Of a stretch of 64,000 nt of DNA, positions 1 to 64,000 are shown piece after piece. This DNA is from Escherichia coli. Lineage in GTDB: Bacteria; Pseudomonadota; Gammaproteobacteria; Enterobacterales; Enterobacteriaceae. Each line of letters begins with the position of its first letter. Within the stretch, counting starts at the first letter, position 1. The stretch lies in NCBI RefSeq assembly GCF_001677475.2, contig NZ_CP015229.1; one strand, given 5' to 3'. The position numbers and the translations under genes were made by a program. The notes beneath the pieces are model-generated. The model was not told the origin of the DNA, ran no database searches, and worked only from the letters and a program-made list of their open reading frames with translations.

Positions 1-565
1 AGAAAGCGATGAAGATACCCTGGCCTTCACACGAGACGAGCGCCAGTTCAGCAACTTATTGTTGGTTGAACAACCAAACGGCAATTTTGCCGACACCATT
101 GCACGCCAGTATTTCATCGATGCATGGCATGTGGCGCTCTTTACCCGTCTGATGGAAAGCCGCGAGCTGCAACTGGCGGCGATTTCTGCCAAAGCAATTA
201 AAGAAGCGCGTTATCACCTGCGTTTTAGTCGTGGCTGGCTGGAGCGACTGGGCAATGGTACTGACGTATCAGGGCAAAAGATGCAGCAGGCCATCGACAA
301 GTTGTGGCGTTTTACTGCCGAACTGTTCGATGCCGACGAGATTGATATTGCACTGAGTGAAGAGGGTATTGCGGTTGATCCACGCACTTTACGCGCAGCG
401 TGGGAAGCCGAAGTTTTTGCCGGGATCAACGAAGCCACATTGAATGTTCCGCAAGAGCAGGCGTATCGCACTGGCGGTAAAAAAGGACTGCATACCGAAC
501 ACCTTGGGCCAATGCTGGCAGAAATGCAGTATCTCCAGCGTGTCTTGCCCGGTCAGCAGTGGTAA
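1..565 (+). CDS. paaC: Phenylacetate-CoA oxygenase subunit PaaC, 3' portion (5' end lies upstream of the window)
   Basis: Reading frame is open from the window start (frame 2) to the TAA at 563-565; translation matches remembered PaaC C-terminal sequence; followed by paaD-paaK in canonical order. Confidence 0.9.
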   Translation, partial: ESDEDTLAFTRDERQFSNLLLVEQPNGNFADTIARQYFIDAWHVALFTRLMESRELQLAAISAKAIKEARYHLRFSRGWLERLGNGTDVSGQKMQQAIDKLWRFTAELFDADEIDIALSEEGIAVDPRTLRAAWEAEVFAGINEATLNVPQEQAYRTGGKKGLHTEHLGPMLAEMQYLQRVLPGQQW

Positions 566-579
566 CAGAGGAGATGGGT

Positions 580-1077
580 ATGCAACGTCTGGCCACCATT
601 GCACCGCCACAGGTGCATGAGATATGGGCGCTACTCAGCCTGATCCCGGACCCGGAGATCCCGGTGCTGACCATTACCGATTTAGGCATGGTGCGTAATG
701 TGACACAGATGGGAGAAGGATGGGTGATCGGCTTTACGCCGACATATTCCGGTTGTCCGGCAACGGAACATTTGATTGGCGCGATACGTGAGGCAATGTC
801 AACCCACGGGTTTACCCCCGTTCAGGTTGTGCTGCAACTTGACCCGGCATGGACCACCGACTGGATGACCCCCGATGCCCGTGAGCGTCTGCGAGAGTAT
901 GGCATTAGCCCGCCCGCAGGACACAGTTGCCATGCCCATTTGCCGCCAGAAGTACGTTGCCCGCGCTGCGCCAGCGTCCATACCACACTTATCAGTGAAT
1001 TTGGTTCCACGGCCTGCAAAGCATTGTACCGCTGCGATAGTTGCCGCGAACCTTTCGATTATTTCAAATGTATTTGA
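580..1077 (+). CDS. paaD: Phenylacetate degradation protein PaaD (165 aa)
   Basis: Track ORF 559..1077; start placed at ATG 580 (MQRLATIAPP...) to give the remembered 165-aa product; Cys-rich C-terminus. Confidence 0.85.
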   Translation: MQRLATIAPPQVHEIWALLSLIPDPEIPVLTITDLGMVRNVTQMGEGWVIGFTPTYSGCPATEHLIGAIREAMSTHGFTPVQVVLQLDPAWTTDWMTPDARERLREYGISPPAGHSCHAHLPPEVRCPRCASVHTTLISEFGSTACKALYRCDSCREPFDYFKCI

Positions 1078-1084
1078 GGATGCC

Positions 1085-2155
1085 ATGACAACGTTTCATT
1101 CCTTAACGGTGGCAAAAGTCGAGCCGGAAACCCGTGATGCGGTGACCATTACCTTTGCGGTGCCCCAGCCTTTGCAGGAGGCGTATCGCTTTCGCCCCGG
1201 TCAACATTTGACCTTAAAAGCCAGCTTTGATGGTGAAGAATTACGCCGTTGTTACTCCATTTGCCGCAGCTACCTGCCTGGCGAAATTAGCGTGGCGGTG
1301 AAAGCCATTGAAGGCGGACGTTTCTCCCGCTATGCCCGCGAACACATCCGCCAGGGTATGACGCTGGAGGTCATGGTGCCGCAGGGTCATTTCGGCTATC
1401 AGCCGCAGGCCGAACGCCAGGGGCGCTATCTGGCTATTGCAGCAGGATCAGGTATTACGCCAATGCTGGCGATTATCGCCACCACTTTACAAACCGAGCC
1501 TGAAAGTCAGTTCACCCTGATCTATGGTAACCGTACCAGCCAGAGCATGATGTTTCGCCAGGCACTGGCAGACCTGAAAGACAAATATCCTCAGCGTTTA
1601 CAGTTGTTGTGCATTTTCAGTCAGGAAACCCTCGACAGCGATCTGCTTCACGGGCGTATTGACGGTGAAAAATTACAGTCACTTGGGGCCTCGCTCATTA
1701 ATTTTCGTCTTTATGATGAGGCATTTATTTGTGGTCCGGCGGCGATGATGGATGAGACGGAAGCCGCCTTCAAAGCACTGGGAATGTCAGATAAAACCAT
1801 TCATCTGGAGCGGTTTAATACACCTGGCACGCGCGTCAAACGTAACGTTAACGTGCAAAGTGACGGACAAAAAGTGACTGTACGTCAGGATGGGCGGGAT
1901 CGGGAAATCGTGCTTAATGCCGACGATGAAAGTATTCTCGATGCGGCATTGCGCCAGGGGGCGGATCTGCCCTATGCCTGCAAAGGCGGCGTGTGTGCGA
2001 CCTGCAAATGCAAAGTGCTGCGTGGCAAAGTGGCGATGGAAACCAATTACAGTCTGGAACCGGATGAACTGGCCGCAGGCTATGTGTTAAGTTGCCAGGC
2101 ACTGCCGCTGACCAGCGATGTGGTGGTTGACTTTGACGCGAAGGGGATGGCATGA
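1085..2155 (+). CDS. paaE: Phenylacetate-CoA oxygenase reductase subunit PaaE (356 aa)
   Basis: In-frame within track ORF 875..2155; start at ATG 1085 (MTTFHSLTVAK); C-terminal CxxxxCxxC plant-type ferredoxin motif (CKGGVCATCKC). Confidence 0.9.
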   Translation: MTTFHSLTVAKVEPETRDAVTITFAVPQPLQEAYRFRPGQHLTLKASFDGEELRRCYSICRSYLPGEISVAVKAIEGGRFSRYAREHIRQGMTLEVMVPQGHFGYQPQAERQGRYLAIAAGSGITPMLAIIATTLQTEPESQFTLIYGNRTSQSMMFRQALADLKDKYPQRLQLLCIFSQETLDSDLLHGRIDGEKLQSLGASLINFRLYDEAFICGPAAMMDETEAAFKALGMSDKTIHLERFNTPGTRVKRNVNVQSDGQKVTVRQDGRDREIVLNADDESILDAALRQGADLPYACKGGVCATCKCKVLRGKVAMETNYSLEPDELAAGYVLSCQALPLTSDVVVDFDAKGMA

Positions 2156-2919
2156 GCGAACTGATCGTCAGCCGTCAGCAACAAGTATTGTTACTGACCC
2201 TTAACCGTCCCGCCGCACGTAATGCACTGAATAATGCTCTGCTGACGCAACTGGTAAATGAACTGGAAGCTGCGGCTATCGATAGCAGTATTTCGGCCTG
2301 TGTGATTACCGGTAATGCACGCTTTTTTGCCGCCGGGGCCGATCTCAACGAAATGGCAGAAAAAGATCTTGCGGCCACCTTAAACGATACACGCCCGCAG
2401 CTATGGGCGCGATTGCAGGCCTTTAACAAACCACTCATCGCAGCCGTCAACGGTTACGCGCTTGGTGCAGGTTGCGAACTGGCATTGTTGTGCGATGTGG
2501 TGGTTGCCGGAGAGAACGCGCGTTTTGGTTTGCCGGAAATCACTCTCGGCATCATGCCTGGCGCAGGAGGAACGCAACGTTTAATCCGTAGTGTCGGTAA
2601 ATCGTTAGCCAGCAAAATGGTGCTGAGCGGAGAAAGCATCACCGCCCAGCAAGCACTGCAGGCCGGGCTGGTTAGCGACGTCTTCCCCAGCGATTTAACC
2701 CTCGAATACGCCTTACAGCTGGCGTCGAAAATGGCACGTCACTCGCCGCTGGCCTTACAAGCGGCAAAGCAAGCGCTGCGCCAGTCGCAGGAAGTGGGTT
2801 TGCAAGCCGGACTTGCCCAGGAGCGACAGTTATTCACCTTGCTGGCGGCAACAGAAGATCGTCATGAAGGCATCTCCGCTTTTTTACAAAAACGCACGCC
2901 CGACTTTAAAGGACGCTAA
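2152..2919 (+). CDS. paaF: 2,3-dehydroadipyl-CoA hydratase (enoyl-CoA hydratase family)
   Basis: Track ORF, 255 aa; crotonase fold sequence; 4-bp overlap with paaE stop. Confidence 0.9.
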   Translation: MSELIVSRQQQVLLLTLNRPAARNALNNALLTQLVNELEAAAIDSSISACVITGNARFFAAGADLNEMAEKDLAATLNDTRPQLWARLQAFNKPLIAAVNGYALGAGCELALLCDVVVAGENARFGLPEITLGIMPGAGGTQRLIRSVGKSLASKMVLSGESITAQQALQAGLVSDVFPSDLTLEYALQLASKMARHSPLALQAAKQALRQSQEVGLQAGLAQERQLFTLLAATEDRHEGISAFLQKRTPDFKGR

Positions 2920-3707
2920 TGATGGAATTCATCCTCAGTCATGTAGAAAAGGGCGTGATGACACTAACGCTCAACCGCCCGGAACGCCTGAACAGTTTTA
3001 ATGATGAGATGCACGCACAACTGGCAGAGTGCCTGAAACAGGTCGAGCGCGACGACACTATCCGTTGCCTGTTAATTACAGGTGCCGGGCGCGGATTTTG
3101 TGCTGGTCAGGATCTTAACGATCGTAACGTTGATCCCACTGGCCCCGCACCGGATTTAGGTATGTCAGTGGAGCGTTTCTATAACCCACTGGTACGTCGC
3201 CTGGCAAAACTGCCAAAACCAGTGATCTGTGCAGTCAATGGCGTGGCGGCAGGAGCTGGCGCAACACTGGCACTGGGGTGCGATATCGTTATTGCTGCCC
3301 GTTCAGCAAAATTCGTCATGGCGTTTAGTAAGTTAGGTTTGGTACCCGATTGCGGTGGTACCTGGTTACTGCCACGCGTTGCCGGACGAGCGCGCGCCCT
3401 GGGGCTGGCACTGCTGGGGAATCAACTGAGTGCTGAACAGGCGCACGAATGGGGGATGATCTGGCAGGTTGTTGATGATGAAACGCTGGCAGATACCGCG
3501 CAACAGCTGGCACGTCATCTGGCGACACAACCGACATTTGGTCTTGGACTTATCAAGCAAGCGATAAATAGCTCTGAAACCAATACGCTCGATACGCAAC
3601 TGGATCTGGAACGCGACTATCAGCGACTTGCCGGACGGAGCGCAGATTATCGTGAAGGCGTCAGTGCATTCCTGGCTAAACGCTCACCGCAGTTCACGGG
3701 GAAATAG
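2919..3707 (+). CDS. paaG: 1,2-epoxyphenylacetyl-CoA isomerase (crotonase family)
   Basis: Track ORF, 262 aa; crotonase-like; start overlaps paaF stop. Confidence 0.9.
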   Translation: MMEFILSHVEKGVMTLTLNRPERLNSFNDEMHAQLAECLKQVERDDTIRCLLITGAGRGFCAGQDLNDRNVDPTGPAPDLGMSVERFYNPLVRRLAKLPKPVICAVNGVAAGAGATLALGCDIVIAARSAKFVMAFSKLGLVPDCGGTWLLPRVAGRARALGLALLGNQLSAEQAHEWGMIWQVVDDETLADTAQQLARHLATQPTFGLGLIKQAINSSETNTLDTQLDLERDYQRLAGRSADYREGVSAFLAKRSPQFTGK

Positions 3708-3708
3708 C

Positions 3709-5136
3709 ATGATGATAAATGTGCAAACTGTGGCAGTGATTGGGAGCGGCACCATGGGGGCAGGCATTGCTGAAGTTGCCGCCAGTCATGGACGTCAGGT
3801 TTTACTGTATGACATTTCTGCTGAAGCGCTGACCCGCGCAATAGACGGAATACACGCGCGGCTGAATTCACGCGTGAAGCGGGGAAAACTGACCGCTGAA
3901 ACCTGTGAACGCACATTGAAACGCCTGATCCCGGTGACCGATATTCACGCGCTGGCAGCAGCGGACCTGGTCATTGAAGCGGCGTCTGAGCGTCTGGACG
4001 TCAAAAAAGCGCTCTTTGCACAGCTGGCGGAAGTTTGCCCGCCACAAACGCTATTGACCACTAACACTTCGTCAATCTCTATAACCGCGATTGCTGCGGA
4101 GGTGAAGAATCCTGAACGTGTTGCGGGGCTGCATTTTTTTAACCCGGCACCGGTGATGAAGTTGGTGGAGGTGGTCAGTGGGCTGGCAACGGCGGCGGAA
4201 GTTGTCGAGCAGCTGTGTGAACTGACATTGAGTTGGGGTAAGCAGCCGGTGCGCTGTCATTCGACTCCTGGATTTATCGTTAACCGTGTAGCGCGTCCTT
4301 ATTATTCCGAGGCCTGGCGGGCACTGGAAGAGCAGGTTGCTGCACCAGAAGTGATTGACGCTGCGCTACGCGATGGCGCTGGTTTCCCGATGGGGCCGCT
4401 GGAATTAACCGATCTGATTGGTCAGGACGTCAATTTTGCTGTCACCTGTTCGGTGTTTAACGCTTTCTGGCAGGAGCGTCGTTTTTTACCTTCGCTGGTG
4501 CAACAGGAACTGGTGATTGGTGGACGGTTGGGCAAAAAAAGTGGGCTTGGCGTGTACGACTGGCGCGCGGAACGTGAGGCAGTTGTTGGCCTGGAAGCGG
4601 TTAGCGACAGTTTTAGCCCAATGAAAGTAGAAAATAAAAGTGACGGTGTCACGGAAATTGACGATGTTTTATTGATTGAGACACAAGGCGAGACGGCACA
4701 GGCGCTGGCAACACGACTGGCGCGCCCGGTGGTAGTGATCGACAAAATGGCGGGCAAGGTGGTGACCATTGCTGCTGCAGCGGTGAACCCGGACTCAGCG
4801 ACCCGCAAGGCCATTTATTACCTGCAACAGCAGGGCAAAACAGTGCTGCAAATTGCAGATTACCCAGGAATGCTGATTTGGCGAACGGTAGCAATGATCA
4901 TCAATGAAGCCCTCGATGCGCTGCAAAAAGGCGTGGCTTCTGAGCAGGATATCGATACCGCCATGCGTCTTGGGGTGAATTATCCATATGGCCCGCTTGC
5001 ATGGGGAGCGCAACTTGGCTGGCAGCGAATATTAAGGCTCCTGGAAAACCTACAACATCACTATGGCGAAGAACGCTATCGCCCATGTTCATTGCTGCGC
5101 CAACGGGCGCTTCTGGAGAGCGGTTATGAGTCATAA
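3709..5136 (+). CDS. paaH: 3-hydroxyadipyl-CoA dehydrogenase (475 aa)
   Basis: Start at ATG 3709 immediately after paaG stop; N-terminal Rossmann motif VIGSGTMGAGIA; track ORF 3628..5136 includes an upstream extension that overlaps paaG. Confidence 0.9.
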   Translation: MMINVQTVAVIGSGTMGAGIAEVAASHGRQVLLYDISAEALTRAIDGIHARLNSRVKRGKLTAETCERTLKRLIPVTDIHALAAADLVIEAASERLDVKKALFAQLAEVCPPQTLLTTNTSSISITAIAAEVKNPERVAGLHFFNPAPVMKLVEVVSGLATAAEVVEQLCELTLSWGKQPVRCHSTPGFIVNRVARPYYSEAWRALEEQVAAPEVIDAALRDGAGFPMGPLELTDLIGQDVNFAVTCSVFNAFWQERRFLPSLVQQELVIGGRLGKKSGLGVYDWRAEREAVVGLEAVSDSFSPMKVENKSDGVTEIDDVLLIETQGETAQALATRLARPVVVIDKMAGKVVTIAAAAVNPDSATRKAIYYLQQQGKTVLQIADYPGMLIWRTVAMIINEALDALQKGVASEQDIDTAMRLGVNYPYGPLAWGAQLGWQRILRLLENLQHHYGEERYRPCSLLRQRALLESGYES

Positions 5137-8193: not shown

Positions 8194-9144
8194 ATGAGTA
8201 AACTTGATACTTTTATCCAACATGCTGTCAACGCTGTTCCTGTCAGTGGCACATCTTTGATCTCCTCTCTGTATGGTGATTCGCTTTCCCATCGTGGTGG
8301 TGAAATCTGGCTGGGTAGTCTGGCTGCTTTGCTGGAAGGGCTGGGATTTGGTGAGCGTTTCGTCCGCACCGCTTTGTTTCGTCTTAATAAAGAAGGCTGG
8401 CTGGATGTTTCCCGCATCGGGCGACGCAGTTTCTATAGCCTCAGTGATAAAGGCTTGCGTCTGACGCGACGGGCAGAAAGTAAAATTTATCGCGCAGAGC
8501 AACCTGCATGGGATGGTAAATGGCTCCTGTTGCTCTCGGAAGGTTTAGATAAATCAACGCTGGCTGATGTCAAAAAGCAGTTGATCTGGCAAGGTTTTGG
8601 CGCACTGGCACCCAGCCTGATGGCATCGCCGTCGCAAAAACTGGCGGATGTACAGACACTTTTGCATGAAGCGGGTGTGGCGGATAACGTGATTTGTTTT
8701 GAAGCGCAAATACCACTGGCGCTTTCTCGTGCAGCACTGCGTGCCAGAGTGGAAGAGTGCTGGCATTTAACTGAACAAAATGCCATGTACGAAACCTTTA
8801 TTCAGTCATTCCGCCCGCTGGTGCCGCTGTTAAAAGAGACGGCAGACGAGTTAACCCCGGAGCGTGCATTTCATATTCAGCTTTTACTGATCCATTTTTA
8901 TCGCCGTGTCGTCCTTAAAGACCCATTATTGCCGGAGGAGTTGCTTCCGGCACACTGGGCAGGGCATACGGCGCGTCAGCTGTGTATCAACATTTATCAG
9001 CGCGTAGCGCCTGCTGCTTTAGCGTTCGTTAGTGAAAAAGGTGAAACCTCGGTCGGTGAACTGCCTTCGCCGGGTAGCCTGTATTTTCAACGTTTTGGCG
9101 GTTTGAATATTGAACAGGAGGCGTTATGCCAATTTATCAGATAG
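8194..9144 (+). CDS. paaX: Phenylacetyl-CoA-responsive transcriptional repressor of the paa operon
   Basis: Track ORF, 316 aa; matches remembered PaaX. Confidence 0.9.
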
Positions 9145-9716
9145 ACGGTCTGACTCCGGTTGTACCAGAAGAGAGTTTTGTTCATCCGACAGCGGTATTG
9201 ATCGGCGATGTTATTCTCGGCAAGGGCGTTTACGTTGGACCAAATGCCAGTCTGCGTGGCGATTTTGGTCGTATCGTGGTGAAAGATGGCGCGAACATTC
9301 AGGATAATTGCGTTATGCACGGTTTTCCCGAGCAGGATACTGTCGTTGAAGAAGATGGGCATATTGGTCATAGCGCTATCCTTCACGGCTGCATTATCCG
9401 CCGCAATGCATTAGTGGGAATGAACGCGGTCGTGATGGACGGTGCGGTGATTGGCGAGAATAGCATTGTTGGCGCATCCGCATTTGTGAAAGCCAAAGCA
9501 GAAATGCCTGCTAATTACCTGATTGTCGGCAGCCCGGCGAAACCGATTCGTGAACTCAGTGAGCAGGAGCTGGCATGGAAAAAGCAGGGCACGCATGAGT
9601 ATCAGGTGCTGGTGACACGTTGTAAGCAGACGTTGCATCAAGTCGAACCATTGCGGGAAGTTGAGGCTGGCAGGCAGCGTCTGGTATTTGATGAGAATCT
9701 GCGACCGAAACAGTAA
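9126..9716 (+). CDS. paaY: Hexapeptide-repeat thioesterase PaaY
   Basis: Track ORF, 196 aa; left-handed beta-helix hexapeptide repeats; overlaps paaX 3' end. Confidence 0.9.
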
Positions 9717-9759
9717 CGTCCTGATGCTGGACGTTCTAATTTTTAGCATGTGATACCTA

Positions 9760-9793
9760 AACCGCAACGCTGATACAGGTTGCGGTTTTTTTA
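9760..9793 (+). terminator. Rho-independent terminator downstream of paaY
   Basis: Stem AACCGCAAC/GTTGCGGTT followed by T7 run. Confidence 0.7.
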
Positions 9794-9947
9794 TTGCCGA
9801 ATGCGGCGCTTTACGCGTTTTGTTTTGGTGTCTTTCAGGACAATAGAGCAACTCATCCAGTAATCTTGTTTACGCCTTCGCATTATTTATCTCTTTTCGT
9901 TTCTATACTGATTTTTCTCAATCCGTTTTATTACAGGGCAGGGTGCG

Positions 9948-10808
9948 ATGAGCAGCAATACATTTACTCTCGGTACTAAATCCGTTAACCGTCTTGGTTA
10001 TGGCGCGATGCAACTGGCAGGTCCTGGGGTTTTTGGCCCCCCAAGAGATCGCCACGTCGCTATAACCGTGCTGCGTGAGGCGCTGGCATTGGGCGTCAAT
10101 CACATTGATACCAGCGACTTTTATGGTCCGCACGTCACCAATCAGATTATCCGCGAAGCGCTTTATCCTTACTCTGACGACCTGACAATTGTCACTAAAA
10201 TTGGTGCGCGGCGTGGAGAGGACGCTTCCTGGTTGCCCGCCTTTTCTCCGTCAGAGCTGCAAAAAGCGGTGCACGATAATCTACGTAATCTCGGGCTGGA
10301 CGTACTGGATGTGGTTAACTTGCGCATTATGATGGGGGATGGTCATGGCCCAGCGGAAGGCTCGATTGAGGCCAGCCTGACCGTGCTGGCAGAGATGCAA
10401 CAACAAGGCCTGGTAAAACATATTGGCCTGAGCAACGTCACACCGACGCAGGTTGCAGAGGCGCGCAAGATTGCCGAAATTGTCTGTGTGCAAAACGAAT
10501 ACAACATCGCGCACCGTGCTGATGATGCAATGATTGATGCTTTGGCCCACGATGGCATTGCCTACGTGCCGTTCTTCCCGCTCGGGGGCTTTACACCGCT
10601 GCAATCCTCTACGCTGTCGGATGTTGCTGCGAGCCTGGGTGCAACACCCATGCAGGTGGCGCTGGCGTGGCTGTTACAACGTTCACCGAATATTTTGCTG
10701 ATCCCAGGGACGTCTTCTGTTGCTCATTTACGGGAGAATATGGCTGCTGAAAAATTGCATCTTTCTGAGGAAGTGTTGTCTACGTTGGATGGTATTTCGC
10801 GAGAATAA
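9948..10808 (+). CDS. ydbC: Aldo-keto reductase family oxidoreductase
   Basis: Track ORF, 286 aa; AKR-type sequence (IDTSDFYGP); matches remembered YdbC. Confidence 0.85.
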   Translation: MSSNTFTLGTKSVNRLGYGAMQLAGPGVFGPPRDRHVAITVLREALALGVNHIDTSDFYGPHVTNQIIREALYPYSDDLTIVTKIGARRGEDASWLPAFSPSELQKAVHDNLRNLGLDVLDVVNLRIMMGDGHGPAEGSIEASLTVLAEMQQQGLVKHIGLSNVTPTQVAEARKIAEIVCVQNEYNIAHRADDAMIDALAHDGIAYVPFFPLGGFTPLQSSTLSDVAASLGATPMQVALAWLLQRSPNILLIPGTSSVAHLRENMAAEKLHLSEEVLSTLDGISRE

Positions 10809-10870: not shown

Positions 10871-13177
10871 ATGTTTAAGGCCAGGAATTGCAGCTGGATA
10901 GGTTTACTTCCCCTGTTTATGCTGAGTCTTCCAGTACAGGCGGAACTTCGATGTGTTGCAAATGCAGTTGATATTGAACCATTTTTTTCTGCGGCTACCG
11001 CTGAAGATAAACAACAAGTTGAACAAGCTATCAACAGTAGCGTGAATCTTGTCCCCGTCGGTTTATCTGCACCGGACTGGAAAGTGCATCGTGGCAATTT
11101 AGTGGTGGAAGGTAATATAGAGAGTAATGAAAAATTGATTGTTCTTGGCAATTTGACAGTCAAAGGAAATATTTCCACTTTCTCTCTTTCTAATCCATGG
11201 GTTATTCTCGGTGATGTGACGGCAACGAATATATTTACGGATTCACCACTGTTAATTACCGGTTCGATAGATGCAAGTGGACTGGTATTTATCGACTCAT
11301 ATTACGATAATCCGTCTACGATTAAGGGAAGTATTAATGCGCGCGGGATATTTATCAATGACATAATTGCACCTGTTGTTGTGTCTTCGATAAATAGCGA
11401 ATTCATGGTCCGTGCGGGAGACAAAAATGACACTGAAAATGTCAAAAAAGCACTGACGATAATAAATCCTGATGCATATTATTGGGGCCTAATAAATGAT
11501 GAAGATGCTCTGAAAGAAATTTTTAAGCGAAGCAATATTCGCATGGCAGGGAATGTCTGTAATCAGATGAAAAAAGAAGCGCTGTTTCGCCCTAAGCCTT
11601 CTCCTGAGTTAGTGCAGGAATTGCAAATGCTGGATGAAGGCAAAGTTGCTGCATTTGAAGGACGAGACATTGCGACATTTGATCTTGCCGTAATGCGAAC
11701 TCTCCCAAGGCTTAAAGGAATTTCAGCTAACCTACGCAAACAACTTATTAATAGCAATGATGAACAAACGATTGAAAGTATGGCGAGATATATGCCCGAC
11801 AATGAGATTCTGGAGTTGACCGATCAGCAATTGGGTTACCAGCCTGTGGTTCTGGGGTTGCTCAACCGTGAACCGCTCTCTGTCGAAATAATGACGCGAA
11901 TGAGTCGTCTACCTAATGGTGTCGGTCCGTTGAATCTTGCGCTACGTGAAGATCTCCCTCTGGATATCGTCATGACTCTGGCGAAAAGAGATTGGGATAT
12001 GATCATTCAGGAGCTTTATAAAGATGCGTGGTTATTGCCCGAATCCATTATTGATGGCTATATCCGCAGTGATGATTCCTCTATTCGTCAGGTCGGTGCT
12101 GGAGGACAACTCACCTACAATCAGGCAATGCAGTTGGCGAACGATTCATCAAACAATGTTGTCACAAGCTTAGCGTTCAAGCTGGCAGAGATGAAGCACC
12201 ATGGTCAATTGTTGCGGATGACGCCACAAGAGAGTGACAAAGTTGCAGGCTATTTATACCAAAAATTCGAGAATGACGATGATCTAATACGTGTGTTATT
12301 TTTAGCATTGCCAGATAACTTACAGTTTAATTTTGTTAAAAGGATGGAGAAAAAATCCCCGGCCTACTTTTGCTGTCGGGATATGCAGGTAATTCACTCT
12401 GACGCTGCTTTACAACGGTTATTGACACGTTTCAACGATCCTGAGGGGTGGAGTAATCTGGCGAAAAATCAGTATCTGAGTACGGCGAAGAAACAAAAAA
12501 TTTGGCATCGCGCTTTATCGCATCGAAAAAATAATCCGAAAGCAGATTCAGCTGCATATGAAACCAGCGCTGATATGATTTTGTCTGAGCTTATCAGCCA
12601 CGGTGAAGTTGATGACCAGATGCTATTAAATGCCACCGCCCTGATACGTTTGGAAGACTGGGACTTTTTAGAGAGTGCATTAGTTAGTTGGGATAATTTA
12701 CCCGCTGTTGTCCTCAAGGAATTACAGCAAAATACGCCACGCAATGATATTTGGGCGAAGTTTTTTCTGAGGCAGGAAAACAGCTCCCGTGCGCAGGTTG
12801 ATGAAGCATTACGCGTCTATTATGCACTCGACCCCGGTGCGTTAGCACAACTGGATGTACTGGCAAAACAACCGGATCGTATATGGTGGAGTACACTGGC
12901 GAAAAGCAATCTCACATTTTTCAAGTTCGGCGCACTTAACAACCGCCACACACCGCCTGCAGTACTGGCGGCAGAAATTGATCCCGAGTGGTGGATTGTG
13001 GCGATGAATAATCCCCGTTTTCCAGTTGATGTATTAAAGGCGAGGCTGAAACGTGATCCTTTGCTGGCGTTAGAGCTTGTTAACCCTGAACTGGATTTAG
13101 TCCGCCAGCTGGCGCTTAACGGTAAGACGCGCGCAATACGGGAACAAGCGATGAAAAAACTTGATGAGTTGTATTGA
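10871..13177 (+). CDS. ydbD: Secreted protein YdbD: signal peptide, beta-helix-like N-terminal region, repeat-rich C-terminal region
   Basis: Track ORF 10865..13177; hydrophobic signal peptide ending VQA-ELR; start could be ATG 10865 or 10871. Confidence 0.85.
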   Translation: MFKARNCSWIGLLPLFMLSLPVQAELRCVANAVDIEPFFSAATAEDKQQVEQAINSSVNLVPVGLSAPDWKVHRGNLVVEGNIESNEKLIVLGNLTVKGNISTFSLSNPWVILGDVTATNIFTDSPLLITGSIDASGLVFIDSYYDNPSTIKGSINARGIFINDIIAPVVVSSINSEFMVRAGDKNDTENVKKALTIINPDAYYWGLINDEDALKEIFKRSNIRMAGNVCNQMKKEALFRPKPSPELVQELQMLDEGKVAAFEGRDIATFDLAVMRTLPRLKGISANLRKQLINSNDEQTIESMARYMPDNEILELTDQQLGYQPVVLGLLNREPLSVEIMTRMSRLPNGVGPLNLALREDLPLDIVMTLAKRDWDMIIQELYKDAWLLPESIIDGYIRSDDSSIRQVGAGGQLTYNQAMQLANDSSNNVVTSLAFKLAEMKHHGQLLRMTPQESDKVAGYLYQKFENDDDLIRVLFLALPDNLQFNFVKRMEKKSPAYFCCRDMQVIHSDAALQRLLTRFNDPEGWSNLAKNQYLSTAKKQKIWHRALSHRKNNPKADSAAYETSADMILSELISHGEVDDQMLLNATALIRLEDWDFLESALVSWDNLPAVVLKELQQNTPRNDIWAKFFLRQENSSRAQVDEALRVYYALDPGALAQLDVLAKQPDRIWWSTLAKSNLTFFKFGALNNRHTPPAVLAAEIDPEWWIVAMNNPRFPVDVLKARLKRDPLLALELVNPELDLVRQLALNGKTRAIREQAMKKLDELY

Positions 13178-13346
13178 TCCACAACGTAATATTTCTTAAC
13201 TATTTGATTAATTGGGATAATCATTCCTGACAGTGAGTCCCCAATACCTTGATATATTCTGAATTTTTAATGAAGCGGCGTGTTGCGATATCTCCGTCAG
13301 GGGAATTGATGCACCATAACGCAAACCGAATTATCAAGGATTGATA

Positions 13347-60882: not shown

Positions 60883-61013
60883 ATGTCATTAAGGAGAATG
60901 ACATCTGGTGAATTAACATTGGCCAGATCGATTTTTGAGAATACAATTGATTATAGCAAGGTATGGATCCACAATGAAAAATATTTGCCTGGTCAAGGGG
61001 AAAGAACAGCGAT
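60883..61013 (+). pseudogene. 5' fragment of a host ORF interrupted by the prophage insertion
   Basis: ATG 60883 with GGAAGGA RBS; MSLRRMTSGELTLARSIFENTIDYSKVWIHNEKYLPGQGERTAI then reads straight into the Mu-type end at 61014 (track ORF 60844..61083 is the chimera). Confidence 0.4.
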
Positions 61014-61190
61014 TGTATTGATTCACTTGAAGTACGAAAAAAACCGGGAGGACATTGGATTATTCGGGATTTGGCGGGATTAGATTTAGTGGGGCTTGCA
61101 AGCCTGTAGGACAGATTTTAGCCGTTACATCTTGAAACGCGAAAGATTGTTGGAAACAGCTTTTGATTCATTAAAGACACGAAAAGCAAT
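61014..61190 (+). repeat. Prophage attL with transposase end-binding sites L1, L2 and L3
   Basis: L1 about 61019-61040 (TGATTCACTTGAAGTACGAAAA), L2 about 61128-61147 (CTTGAAACGCGAAAGA), L3 about 61164-61186 (TGATTCATTAAAGACACGAAAAG); terminal 5'-TG. Confidence 0.8.
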
Positions 61191-61352
61191 TACTTCACGC
61201 ATCATTTCAAGTACAGCTTCAAAAATGCTTCAAAAACGGTAACAACCAGGCTTTCGGCAAGTGATGTGTGTCAAAAACAATCATCACTGTTTGGGTATCT
61301 TACATATGTAATTACCTAGAGTGAAGTTTATGTCTTAGCTATTACCTGGTTG

Positions 61353-61877
61353 TTATACAGCTTTCTTTACATCGTTTTCTCTTACAGGGAAATTATGTTC
61401 TTTGCCTTCATACTGAGACAAAATCTCTCTCACTTTTTCAGGTGGTAATGCCTGAAGAGTTTGCAGGGTTTTCTGTTGATCCACAGTAATCCCTAATGCC
61501 TCTAATGCCTTATCTTTACTGACAATTGTAGGCATAAGTCCTTTAATCCCTGCTACACGAATGATCTCCACAGCTGCGGCCTGCTCATCTGGTGTTAAGA
61601 AGCTCATTGCATAAATTAGCCTCTCATCAACTGTATGGGCGATTGATGTATGCACTGGTTTATCAGAAAGTGAGGCTCCTTTAATGGCCCTACGTGTTTC
61701 TTCTGGCAGACTGTTGATGTGATACTCATAAGCGACACCTTTCCCACCGTGACGCTGACGTTTTACCCAATCTTCCGCCACAGCTTTCCTGGTAATGTTA
61801 GTCGCCAACTTTGGTACACCAGGCATCCCTTCCAGCTCTTTCGCATTAAACCATTCTTTGATTTCAAAAGACATCAT
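61353..61877 (-). CDS. c: Mu-type lysogeny repressor (174 aa)
   Basis: Track ORF; C-terminus ...NDVKKAV resembles Mu repressor ...QEVKKAV; N-terminal region resembles the transposase N-terminus; leftward orientation as in Mu. Confidence 0.85.
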   Translation of the reverse strand: MMSFEIKEWFNAKELEGMPGVPKLATNITRKAVAEDWVKRQRHGGKGVAYEYHINSLPEETRRAIKGASLSDKPVHTSIAHTVDERLIYAMSFLTPDEQAAAVEIIRVAGIKGLMPTIVSKDKALEALGITVDQQKTLQTLQALPPEKVREILSQYEGKEHNFPVRENDVKKAV

Positions 61878-62057
61878 TTAAAATCCTAGCGATTTCAATA
61901 GAGACAAAATAAATTCATATAAAAATCATGCCGTTATATGAAATCATGGTAAATACTTTCAAATCTCTATTGATTTGAAAATGATTCCACACTACATTGC
62001 ACGATATGCCGTGAGCTACTTTATAGCGTAGCTCACGGGGGAATCTGAAAGGATTAC
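61878..62057. promoter_or_regulatory. Prophage early control region (operators, divergent promoters, transposition enhancer) by position
   Basis: Intergenic AT-rich region between divergent repressor and ner; individual operators not resolved by eye. Confidence 0.5.
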
Positions 62058-62062
62058 ATGAA

Positions 62063-62284
62063 ATGCATATGAATAAAAGAACTAACCGCCAAGATTGGCA
62101 CAGAGCTGACATCGTTGCAGAGCTACGAAAACGCAATATGTCACTAGCTGAATTGGGAAGATCTAATCATCTTTCGTCTTCAACATTAAAAAATGCTTTG
62201 GATAAGAGATATCCGAAAGCGGAGAAAATCATTGCAGATGCACTGGGAATGACACCGCAAGATATTTGGCCGTCTCGATACTAG
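62063..62284 (+). CDS. ner: Ner-like DNA-binding regulator of early transcription (73 aa)
   Basis: Track ORF; [33 protein letters not shown]... resembles Mu Ner (...DWHRADVIAGLKKRKLSLSALSR...); AAGGA RBS. Confidence 0.85.
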
Positions 62285-62291
62285 GTGCGCT

Positions 62292-64000
62292 ATGAAAGAA
62301 TGGTATACAGCAAAAGAGTTGCTCGGTTTGGCAGGTTTACCAAAGCAAGCCACTAACATTACACGTAAGGCACAAAGAGAAGGCTGGGAGTTCAGGCAGG
62401 TTGCAGGGACTAAAGGTGTATCATTTGAATTCAATATCAAATCATTCCCTGTCGCATTACGTGCTGAAATTCTGTTGCAACAAGGGAGAATTGAAACAAG
62501 CCAGGGGTATTTTGAAATCGCCCGCCCCACGCTGGAAGCCCACGATTACGATCGCGGGGCACTGTGGAGCAAATGGGATAAAGCCAGCGATTCCCAGCGC
62601 AGACTTGCTGAAAAATGGTTGCCTGCAGTTCAGGCCGCAGACGAAATGCTGAACCAGGGGATTTCAACAAAAACGGCTTTTGCGACCGTTGCAGGACATT
62701 ACCAGGTCAGCGCATCCACTTTGCGAGACAAGTATTACCAGGTACAGAAGTTTGCGAAGCCTGACTGGGCGGCTGCACTTGTTGATGGACGTGGTGCATC
62801 TCGTCGCAATGTTCACAAAAGTGAATTTGACGAGGATGCCTGGCAGTTTCTGATTGCAGATTATCTGCGACCGGAAAAACCCGCCTTCCGCAAATGTTAT
62901 GAGCGTCTGGAACTGGCAGCCCGCGAGCATGGCTGGAGTATTCCCTCCCGTGCCACGGCCTTTCGCCGGATTCAGCAACTGGACGAGGCAATGGTTGTTG
63001 CCTGTCGTGAAGGTGAACATGCACTGATGCATCTGATACCGGCACAGCAGCGAACTGTGGAACACCTGGACGCCATGCAGTGGATCAACGGCGACGGTTA
63101 TCTGCATAACGTCTTTGTACGCTGGTTTAACGGTGATGTGATCCGCCCGAAAACATGGTTCTGGCAGGATGTGAAAACCCGAAAAATTCTGGGCTGGCGC
63201 TGCGATGTGAGCGAGAACATTGATTCAATTCGCCTCTCGTTCATGGATGTGGTGACACGCTACGGCATCCCGGAAGATTTTCACATCACCATTGATAACA
63301 CCCGTGGGGCAGCGAATAAATGGCTGACGGGGGGCGCGCCCAATCGTTACCGCTTTAAGGTGAAAGAGGACGATCCAAAGGGACTGTTTTTACTGATGGG
63401 CGCGAAAATGCACTGGACAAGCGTTGTTGCCGGTAAAGGCTGGGGCCAGGCAAAACCTGTTGAACGTGCTTTCGGTGTTGGTGGGCTTGAGGAATACGTT
63501 GATAAGCATCCGGCACTGGCTGGCGCATATACGGGGCCAAATCCGCAGGCAAAACCTGATAACTATGGCGACCGTGCTGTTGATGCAGAGCTGTTTCTGA
63601 AAACCCTTGCTGAAGGTGTGGCGATGTTCAATGCCAGAACAGGCCGTGAAACAGAAATGTGCGGGGGCAAACTCTCGTTTGATGATGTTTTCGAGCGTGA
63701 ATACGCCAGAACGATTGTGCGTAAGCCAACCGAAGAACAAAAACGGATGCTGTTACTGCCTGCCGAAGCGGTGAACGTTTCACGCAAAGGCGAGTTTACG
63801 CTTAAAGTTGGCGGCTCCCTTAAAGGCGCGAAAAACGTTTATTACAACATGGCGTTAATGAATGCAGGCGTGAAAAAAGTTGTGGTCAGGTTTGATCCGC
63901 AGCAGCTACACAGCACAGTTTATTGCTACACCCTGGACGGTCGGTTTATCTGTGAAGCGGAATGTCTGGCACCTGTTGCATTTAATGATGCTGCGGCAGG
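62292..64000 (+). CDS. A: MuA-type DDE transposase, N-terminal ~569 codons (3' end outside window)
   Basis: Not in ORF track because there is no stop before the window end; hand translation [32 protein letters not shown]... with DDE residues at codons 268 (INGDGY), 335 (ITIDNTRG) and 391 (PVERAF). Confidence 0.9.

Follow-up and report, generated by a model that had tools for sequence, protein, structure and literature searches.

We report that the 231-bp spacer between paaY and pdxI (ydbC) in a 64,000-nucleotide stretch of Escherichia coli DNA (RefSeq contig NZ_CP015229.1; hereafter the window) most probably represents the scar of a single, old and imprecise deletion, which removed ydbA from an ancestor with the gene order paaY-ydbA-pdxI; we put the probability of this reading at roughly 0.9. 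The deleted gene is a member of the BigA/YdbA family of adhesins (cf. Salmonella BigA), and a protein of this kind is not encoded at the locus in the window, where about 19 nt of the gene remain, among them the final Phe codon of the ...KKTF* end and the stop codon. The preliminary description of the window had asked whether alignment would reveal an ancestral empty site or a precise deletion; the alignments favour neither and point to an old, imprecise deletion whose trace is about 19 nt from the 3' end of ydbA together with a 4-nt filler.

The short spacer is an ordinary presence/absence polymorphism. Heterogeneous gene content has already been reported for the paa-ydbA region, where about 42% of phylogroup A genomes carry full-length ydbA (PMC4951805). 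Our literature search found no paper describing the scar itself. On the deletion reading, the common short paaY-pdxI arrangement would be a derived loss of a BigA-family adhesin and not the original state, and in K-12, with its IS-riddled ydbA, the gene would have been lost a second time and independently. As a simple marker, the 23-nt scar could then help to trace the allele and to study recombination among E. coli lineages. There is no sign of a new kind of element or mechanism at the locus.

The paaY-pdxI spacer and its features

The spacer covers positions 9717-9947, between the end of paaY (9716) and the ATG of pdxI (9948), in agreement with the length of 231 bp given earlier. The features discussed below are as follows.

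9126-9716, + strand: paaY CDS (196 aa; from the ORF list), with its TAA at 9714-9716 abutting the proposed left deletion breakpoint
9715-9735, + strand: scar hairpin with 7-bp arms (AACGTCC/GGACGTT) followed by CTAATTTTTA, from the terminator scan
9717-9739, + strand: putative deletion scar, reading CGTCCTGATGCTGGACGTTCTAA, from alignments with the ydbA tails of K-12, SCPM-O-B-8794 and Pseudocitrobacter
9740-9947, + strand: native ydbA-pdxI intergenic region, whole, collinear with 13010-13216 of the K-12 locus (L001)
9759-9792, + strand: predicted intrinsic terminator, an inverted repeat with arms 9759-9768 and 9779-9788 and a T-run to 9792
9795-9822, + strand: truncated REP-like element, TGCCGAATGCGGCG..., from alignment with REP-type sequences of SCPM-O-B-8794 and Pseudocitrobacter
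9896-9947, + strand: conserved block upstream of pdxI, with a candidate -10 element (TATACT, 9904-9909) and a candidate ribosome-binding site (AGGG, 9938-9941)
9948-10808, + strand: pdxI (ydbC) CDS (286 aa; pyridoxine 4-dehydrogenase/aldo-keto reductase; from the ORF list)

The identities of the flanking genes were supported by NCBIfam models, with 374.6 bits for PaaY (TIGR02287; cut-off 319.6) and 558 bits for the pdxI ORF (PRK10376; cut-off 280), and orthologues of the latter, which is the ydbC ORF of the window, carry the RefSeq name pdxI, pyridoxine 4-dehydrogenase. Neither an IS sequence nor an autotransporter ORF is present in 9717-9947, and sequence comparison thus bears out that the window lacks ydbA and IS elements between the two genes.

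In the K-12 MG1655 record the order is paaY, a 66-nt hypothetical ORF, a ydbA 5' fragment, IS2, IS30, a ydbA 3' fragment and pdxI, followed by ydbD, ynbABCD, azoR and hrpA. The K-12 layout given in the preliminary description, with ydbA carrying IS2 and IS30 between paaY and ydbC, is therefore correct, and the window, which has no interrupted ydbA, is not K-12-like at this locus. Flanking genes, order and orientation (paa operon, pdxI, ydbD, ynbABCD, azoR and hrpA) are the same in both, as are the 207/208-bp ydbA-pdxI intergenic region with its terminator and the last 9 nt of ydbA; the window differs from MG1655 in having neither the approximately 330-bp paaY-ydbA intergenic region, nor nearly all of ydbA, nor the two IS elements. 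In the flanks, 2.4% of positions differ over the first 750 nt of pdxI and 4.2% over paaY. It had also been proposed that finding the same 231-bp spacer in reference genomes would mean that this K-12 layout was wrong; K-12 does not show the spacer, so that the layout stands, while 2039 of 5426 complete E. coli genomes do.

The earlier statement that the spacer contains only a clean terminator had to be revised, in that a 23-nt ydbA 3' remnant, a truncated REP-like element and the pdxI upstream region are also present. As judged from the alignments, the 231 bp can be read as a 23-nt scar (9717-9739) plus the complete and otherwise ordinary ydbA-pdxI intergenic region (9740-9947), which is 208 nt long in the window versus 207 in K-12, with few substitutions and one 1-nt indel.

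The inverted repeat at 9759-9792 has perfect 10-bp arms, a 10-nt loop and seven T (dG -17.7 kcal/mol, z -4.8). Being a G+C-rich stem-loop followed by a T-run, 3' of a stop codon on the same strand, it is predicted to be a Rho-independent terminator, and the same hairpin is found at the same place 3' of the ydbA stop in K-12, 097H6 and GN02350. Since the 208 bp beyond the scar correspond to the normal ydbA-pdxI intergenic region, the "clean terminator" would be that of ydbA itself, now positioned 43 nt after the paaY stop as the apparent first strong terminator after paaY. The idea of a paaY terminator is corrected in this respect, the hairpin probably having been inherited from ydbA; the terminator belonging to paaY in K-12 is located at approximately 4088-4125 of the K-12 locus (L001; dG -16.0, z -5.3).

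The hairpin at 9759-9788 is missing in SCPM-O-B-8794 and Pseudocitrobacter, where a full REP-type palindrome, GCCGGATGCG...CTTATCCGGCCTAC, occupies the same place (L005, approximately 4415-4500, and L006, approximately 9813-9900); compared with these, 9795-9822 in the window is a truncated REP-like half only. The designation REP-like is our own reading of the consensus, and the fold of 9795-9822 (z -1.1) is below significance. The block at 9896-9947 is kept across E. coli, E. albertii, SCPM-O-B-8794 and Pseudocitrobacter and may have a promoter role; a promoter scan of the spacer did not reveal a full sigma-70 consensus. Rfam covariance models gave no match at E ≤ 1 in window positions 9500-10100.

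The hairpin at 9715-9735 (dG -10.4, z -3.5) was considered as a conserved structure and rejected, as it is strong in the window and STEC409 variants only; the remaining scar variants form it weakly or not at all (-4.2 to -6.3). It is probably incidental, because it is weak in most other variants.

The proposed scar retains the 3' end of ydbA

Positions 9717-9739 retain final ydbA codons and the stop codon. The layout is TAA-C-GTCC-TGATGCTGGAC-(11-nt gap)-GTTCTAA, to which GGCGTGATGCTGAAC[TTCAAGAAAAC]GTTCTAA corresponds in K-12, where the ydbA tail reads ...GAT AAA GGC GTG ATG CTG AAC TTC AAG AAA ACG TTC TAA. The C at 9717 is common to the window and the K-12 left flank (TAAC), GTCC (9718-9721) is a 4-nt filler, and TGATGCTGGAC (9722-9732) matches the ydbA codons ..V M L N. 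Relative to ydbA, 11 nt are missing between 9732 and 9733, and GTTCTAA (9733-9739) represents the last ydbA codon (Phe) and the stop TAA (9737-9739). About 19 nt of ydbA sequence plus the 4-nt filler are thus left in the window.

The nine ydbA alleles examined, among them the ones from Pseudocitrobacter and from an Escherichia genome that is 12% diverged, all end ...SDKGVMLN(F/V)KKTF*, and on this basis the residue at the junction was assigned to the conserved ydbA end. The K-12 match to the window restarts 9-10 nt inside the ydbA CDS, at ACGTTCTAA, which encodes the conserved ...KKTF* C-terminus, a C-terminus present in 9/9 alleles, Pseudocitrobacter included. Among the scars, TGATGCTG(G/A)AC (G in the window) corresponds to the ydbA codons V-M-L-N, and in Rb-50 and E2348/69 the scar agrees exactly with ydbA over a 10-mer. 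For the window allele, the chance of matching the 60-nt ydbA tail over an 8-mer is about 0.01, as estimated with 14-mers sampled from the window, and for the inferred ancestral scar the chance of an 11-mer match is about 1e-4.

As expected for a deletion scar, residual sequence of the lost gene is found at the junction, and both flanks are collinear with ydbA-positive genomes up to it. The left flanks of such genomes match the window up to TAAC (9717) and no further, while the right flanks match from 9731 on in thousands of genomes.

A proposed course of the deletion

The deletion would have removed the BigA-family autotransporter gene ydbA, all but the last approximately 20 nt of its CDS, together with the approximately 330-bp AT-rich region upstream of ydbA, in which the terminator belonging to paaY and a 21-codon ORF are situated; the promoter region of ydbA would have been lost as well. 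Compared with NCTC86, which has an intact ydbA of 5769 nt, 6069 + 11 bp are missing (about 6.07 kb). The left breakpoint would lie one base past the paaY stop (TAAC) and the right one about 25-30 nt before the ydbA stop, with the four nucleotides GTCC filling the junction. A further 11 nt may have been lost inside the remnant between short AAC repeats, either by slippage or as part of the same event; AAC repeats flank the 11-nt gap, with AACGT in the Pseudocitrobacter-type allele. The downstream ydbA-pdxI intergenic region would have survived whole, such that the ydbA terminator came to adjoin paaY and the pdxI upstream region stayed intact.

No IS end, target-site duplication or clean repeat-to-repeat junction, as would mark an IS-mediated event or a precise excision, was detected at the breakpoint. 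In ydbA-positive genomes the left flank reads TAAC and then AGATGTAAAA, and the ydbA tail reads GGCGTGATG and then CTGAAC, so a GATG microhomology at the junction is possible. A simple model based on GATG predicts TAACAGATGCTG, whereas TAACGTCC(A/T)GATGCTG is observed, and the candidate microhomologies GATG and TAA (3-4 nt) both fail to reproduce the observed junction. GTCC occurs in none of the nine ydbA alleles and none of five left flanks, and TAACGTCC is absent from four E. coli ydbA-positive left-flank loci and from the Pseudocitrobacter locus. Since GTCC was found in no allele or left flank examined, the mechanism at the junction is only partly reconstructed.

Two candidate sources for GTCC (9718-9721) were rejected. 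As a variant ydbA sequence it would give a clean TAAC microhomology, but all nine tails, two outgroups included, read AAAGG(C/T)GTGATGCT; as a variant of the left flank, it is at odds with the four E. coli ydbA-positive flanks, which read TAACAGATG or TAACAGTTA.

Gene order in outgroups and the ancestral state

Among the PdxI matches listed, which came mostly from distant Proteobacteria, four could be used for comparison, namely E. albertii, SCPM-O-B-8794, Pseudocitrobacter and Kluyvera, a set that does not extend to E. fergusonii or the cryptic clades. In Pseudocitrobacter faecalis, paaK-paaX-paaY (PaaY with 90% aa identity to that of the window) is followed by a ydbA homologue and pdxI; the homologue is 1982 aa long and 48% identical over approximately 1900 aa. 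In SCPM-O-B-8794, a divergent Escherichia genome with a pdxI 12% diverged, ydbA is directly upstream of pdxI. The gene is thus found in the same position in outgroups (P. faecalis and SCPM-O-B-8794), as a deletion scar would require. E. albertii has the order ydbH-ynbE-ydbL-pdxI with neither paa nor ydbA here, Kluyvera has a different and unrelated gene upstream of pdxI, and the occupied arrangement was seen in one non-Escherichia outgroup only, among the matches listed. The outgroups alone therefore leave the polarity undecided, because E. albertii and Kluyvera are uninformative and the single occupied outgroup beyond Escherichia is Pseudocitrobacter.

That paaY and pdxI were adjacent to begin with, and that ydbA with its upstream region was inserted later in the lineage of K-12 and others, would agree with E. 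albertii having no ydbA upstream of pdxI and with the unrelated gene in Kluyvera. The region upstream of ydbA is also AT-rich, and AT-richness is common in horizontally acquired DNA. Moreover, variation in gene content is known to be concentrated in this region (PMC4951805). We nevertheless consider an ancestral empty site very improbable. Besides the ydbA stop, the spacer has the Phe codon before it and, correctly ordered, another 8-11 nt from the ydbA CDS, and an insertion would need pre-existing DNA to supply exactly the conserved ...TF* end. In addition, the order paaY-ydbA-pdxI is also present in Pseudocitrobacter, strains without the paa operon retain a paaY remnant beside ydbA, and no repeats or mobile-element ends flank ydbA. 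The Pseudocitrobacter order, the remnant of the ydbA tail and the paaY remnant in paa-less strains together argue that the occupied state is the older one, in keeping with a deletion of ydbA.

The paaY remnant was observed in strain UID2309220013, which is without the paa operon and has a 329-nt paaY 3' pseudogene fragment directly upstream of ydbA (L091 8786-9114); as this fragment is kept, the paa operon was apparently lost secondarily in that strain.

Distribution of the scar and evidence for a single event

With a 100-nt query centred on the junction, the scar was detected in 2039 of the 5426 complete E. coli genomes (37.6%; 2032 with a 1301-nt query), and a ydbA 3' end joined to the spacer was found in 3083 (56.8%). 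Scars were compared for nine complete genomes chosen over the identity range (WGI31CT, TW14425, STEC409, O111:H8 02-3334, RM8082, Rb-50, SCU-113, E2348/69 and SC476) and for six draft contigs encoding an identical PaaY, 15 in total. Breakpoints, GTCC filler and 11-nt gap agree in all 15, that is, the junction is one and the same, in a sample that is small relative to 2039 genomes. The scars vary by substitutions at four positions of the 23-nt scar, and in two strains also in the paaY stop codon. In O111:H8 02-3334, STEC409, WGI31CT and E2348/69 the spacer is 230-231 bp; the 23-nt scar of STEC409 is identical to that of the window, whereas the flanking haplotypes of the scar-type strains differ from that of the window.

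Because independent deletions would not be expected to reproduce an untemplated filler and an internal gap, an origin in one old event is the best reading of these 15 sequences, drawn from about 2000 genomes. The alternative is that the same spacer arose independently many times, through recombination between short repeats or IS activity, in which case its sharing would say nothing about descent. The scar does occur on three or more pdxI haplotypes, of which two are almost the same as those of ydbA-positive strains, and IS elements have often inserted in ydbA (IS2 and IS30 in K-12, IS3 in CREC8, IS1 in PM4 and IS66 in FDAARGOS_1296). Against recurrence, which we therefore regard as highly unlikely, stand the identical breakpoints, untemplated GTCC and 11-nt internal gap in 15/15 scars, features that independent events would not repeat, as well as a junction that has no IS remnant and whose sole candidate microhomology (GATG or TAA) is 3-4 nt long and predicts the wrong sequence. 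That a long, repeat-rich autotransporter gene (1673 to about 2870 aa) was collapsed or dropped from the assembly is a practically negligible concern, given that the identical junction recurs in 2039 complete genomes, most of them closed, and in independently assembled drafts with 99.4-100% identity to the window.

The pdxI haplotypes that carry the scar (at least three) are 4-5% apart from one another. That of STEC409 is 0.1% from the K-12 haplotype, and that of Rb-50 is 0.5% from that of FDAARGOS_1296, which is ydbA-positive and B2-like. The presence of the scar on several diverged haplotypes close to those of ydbA-positive strains suggests that the deletion allele, once formed, has probably moved between lineages by homologous recombination, including into the divergent lineage of the window. 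No clean recombination tract around the scar was seen in the divergence profile of the window versus WGI31CT, which is patchy (2-22 differences per 500 nt).

A more speculative and in our judgement improbable extension is that the allele spread by recombination under positive selection for loss of the adhesin (antigen loss or cost saving) across B1-like, K-12-like and B2-like backgrounds and the approximately 3%-diverged background of the window. The hairpin in the window scar, in which two substitutions give a perfect 7-bp stem before a U-rich tract, could on that view add a terminator or attenuator for paaXY.

In Rb-50 (L088 127-747) and E2348/69 (L093 1074-1688) the paaY stop TAA is changed to TCA; as a consequence, the paaY frame would extend by 10 codons through the scar to a stop at the TAG of TTTTTAG. 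In the scar-bearing cattle isolate RM8082, pdxI is annotated as frameshifted (L087 947-1698).

The ydbA family and variation at the locus

Both NCTC86 YdbA and the Pseudocitrobacter homologue match the Pfam families PF25784 (BigA_N) and PF25783 (BigA_beta). Against the NCBIfam model auto_BigA, NCTC86 YdbA scored 1067 bits, under the cut-off of 3400, and YdbA is therefore regarded as a relative of Salmonella BigA and not as the same protein. The length of ydbA varies among strains, from 1673 aa in 097H6 (L090 9489-14510) and 1922 aa in NCTC86 (L095 8489-14257) to about 2867 aa in AVS0972 (L103; record 138617-147220), and differing IS elements have struck it (IS2 + IS30, IS3, IS1 and IS66). Several 8-9-kb ydbA genes beside pdxI are named "EntS/YbdA MFS transporter" in RefSeq (L096 1-1089; L103 1-400; H34, H79, H80, H82 and H147), evidently by confusion of the names ydbA and ybdA. 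Gene content also varies on the downstream side of pdxI: in 097H6, pdxI directly adjoins azoR without ydbD-ynbABCD (L090 14718-16297), and GN02350 (L092 17257-18424) and FDAARGOS_1296 (L096 4021-5785) are without ydbD.

Lineage of the window and its distal end

Over 1-24 kb, the window has at most 97.3% identity to any of the 5426 complete E. coli genomes, and over 40-61 kb the best identity to complete genomes is about 97.0-97.1%. Several drafts (GCA_019135675.1, GCA_036438655.1, GCA_040939905.1 and SRR22006506) are 99.4-100% identical to it around the locus, and the scar is present in all of them. With at most 97.3% identity to complete genomes and 99.4-100% to drafts, the window is assigned to a divergent Escherichia lineage without a complete RefSeq E. 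coli genome.

Near 61,014 the window ceases to be collinear with complete E. coli genomes. The last approximately 3 kb (approximately 61010-64000) match, at 98-99%, a segment present in only 307 of the 5426 genomes, where it is at a different chromosomal site each time, beside pduA, potE, nrdE or yehR. The annotation of this part includes a transposase-domain protein, a MerR regulator and an HTH protein, and it is probably the end of a transposable, possibly Mu-like, prophage or element.
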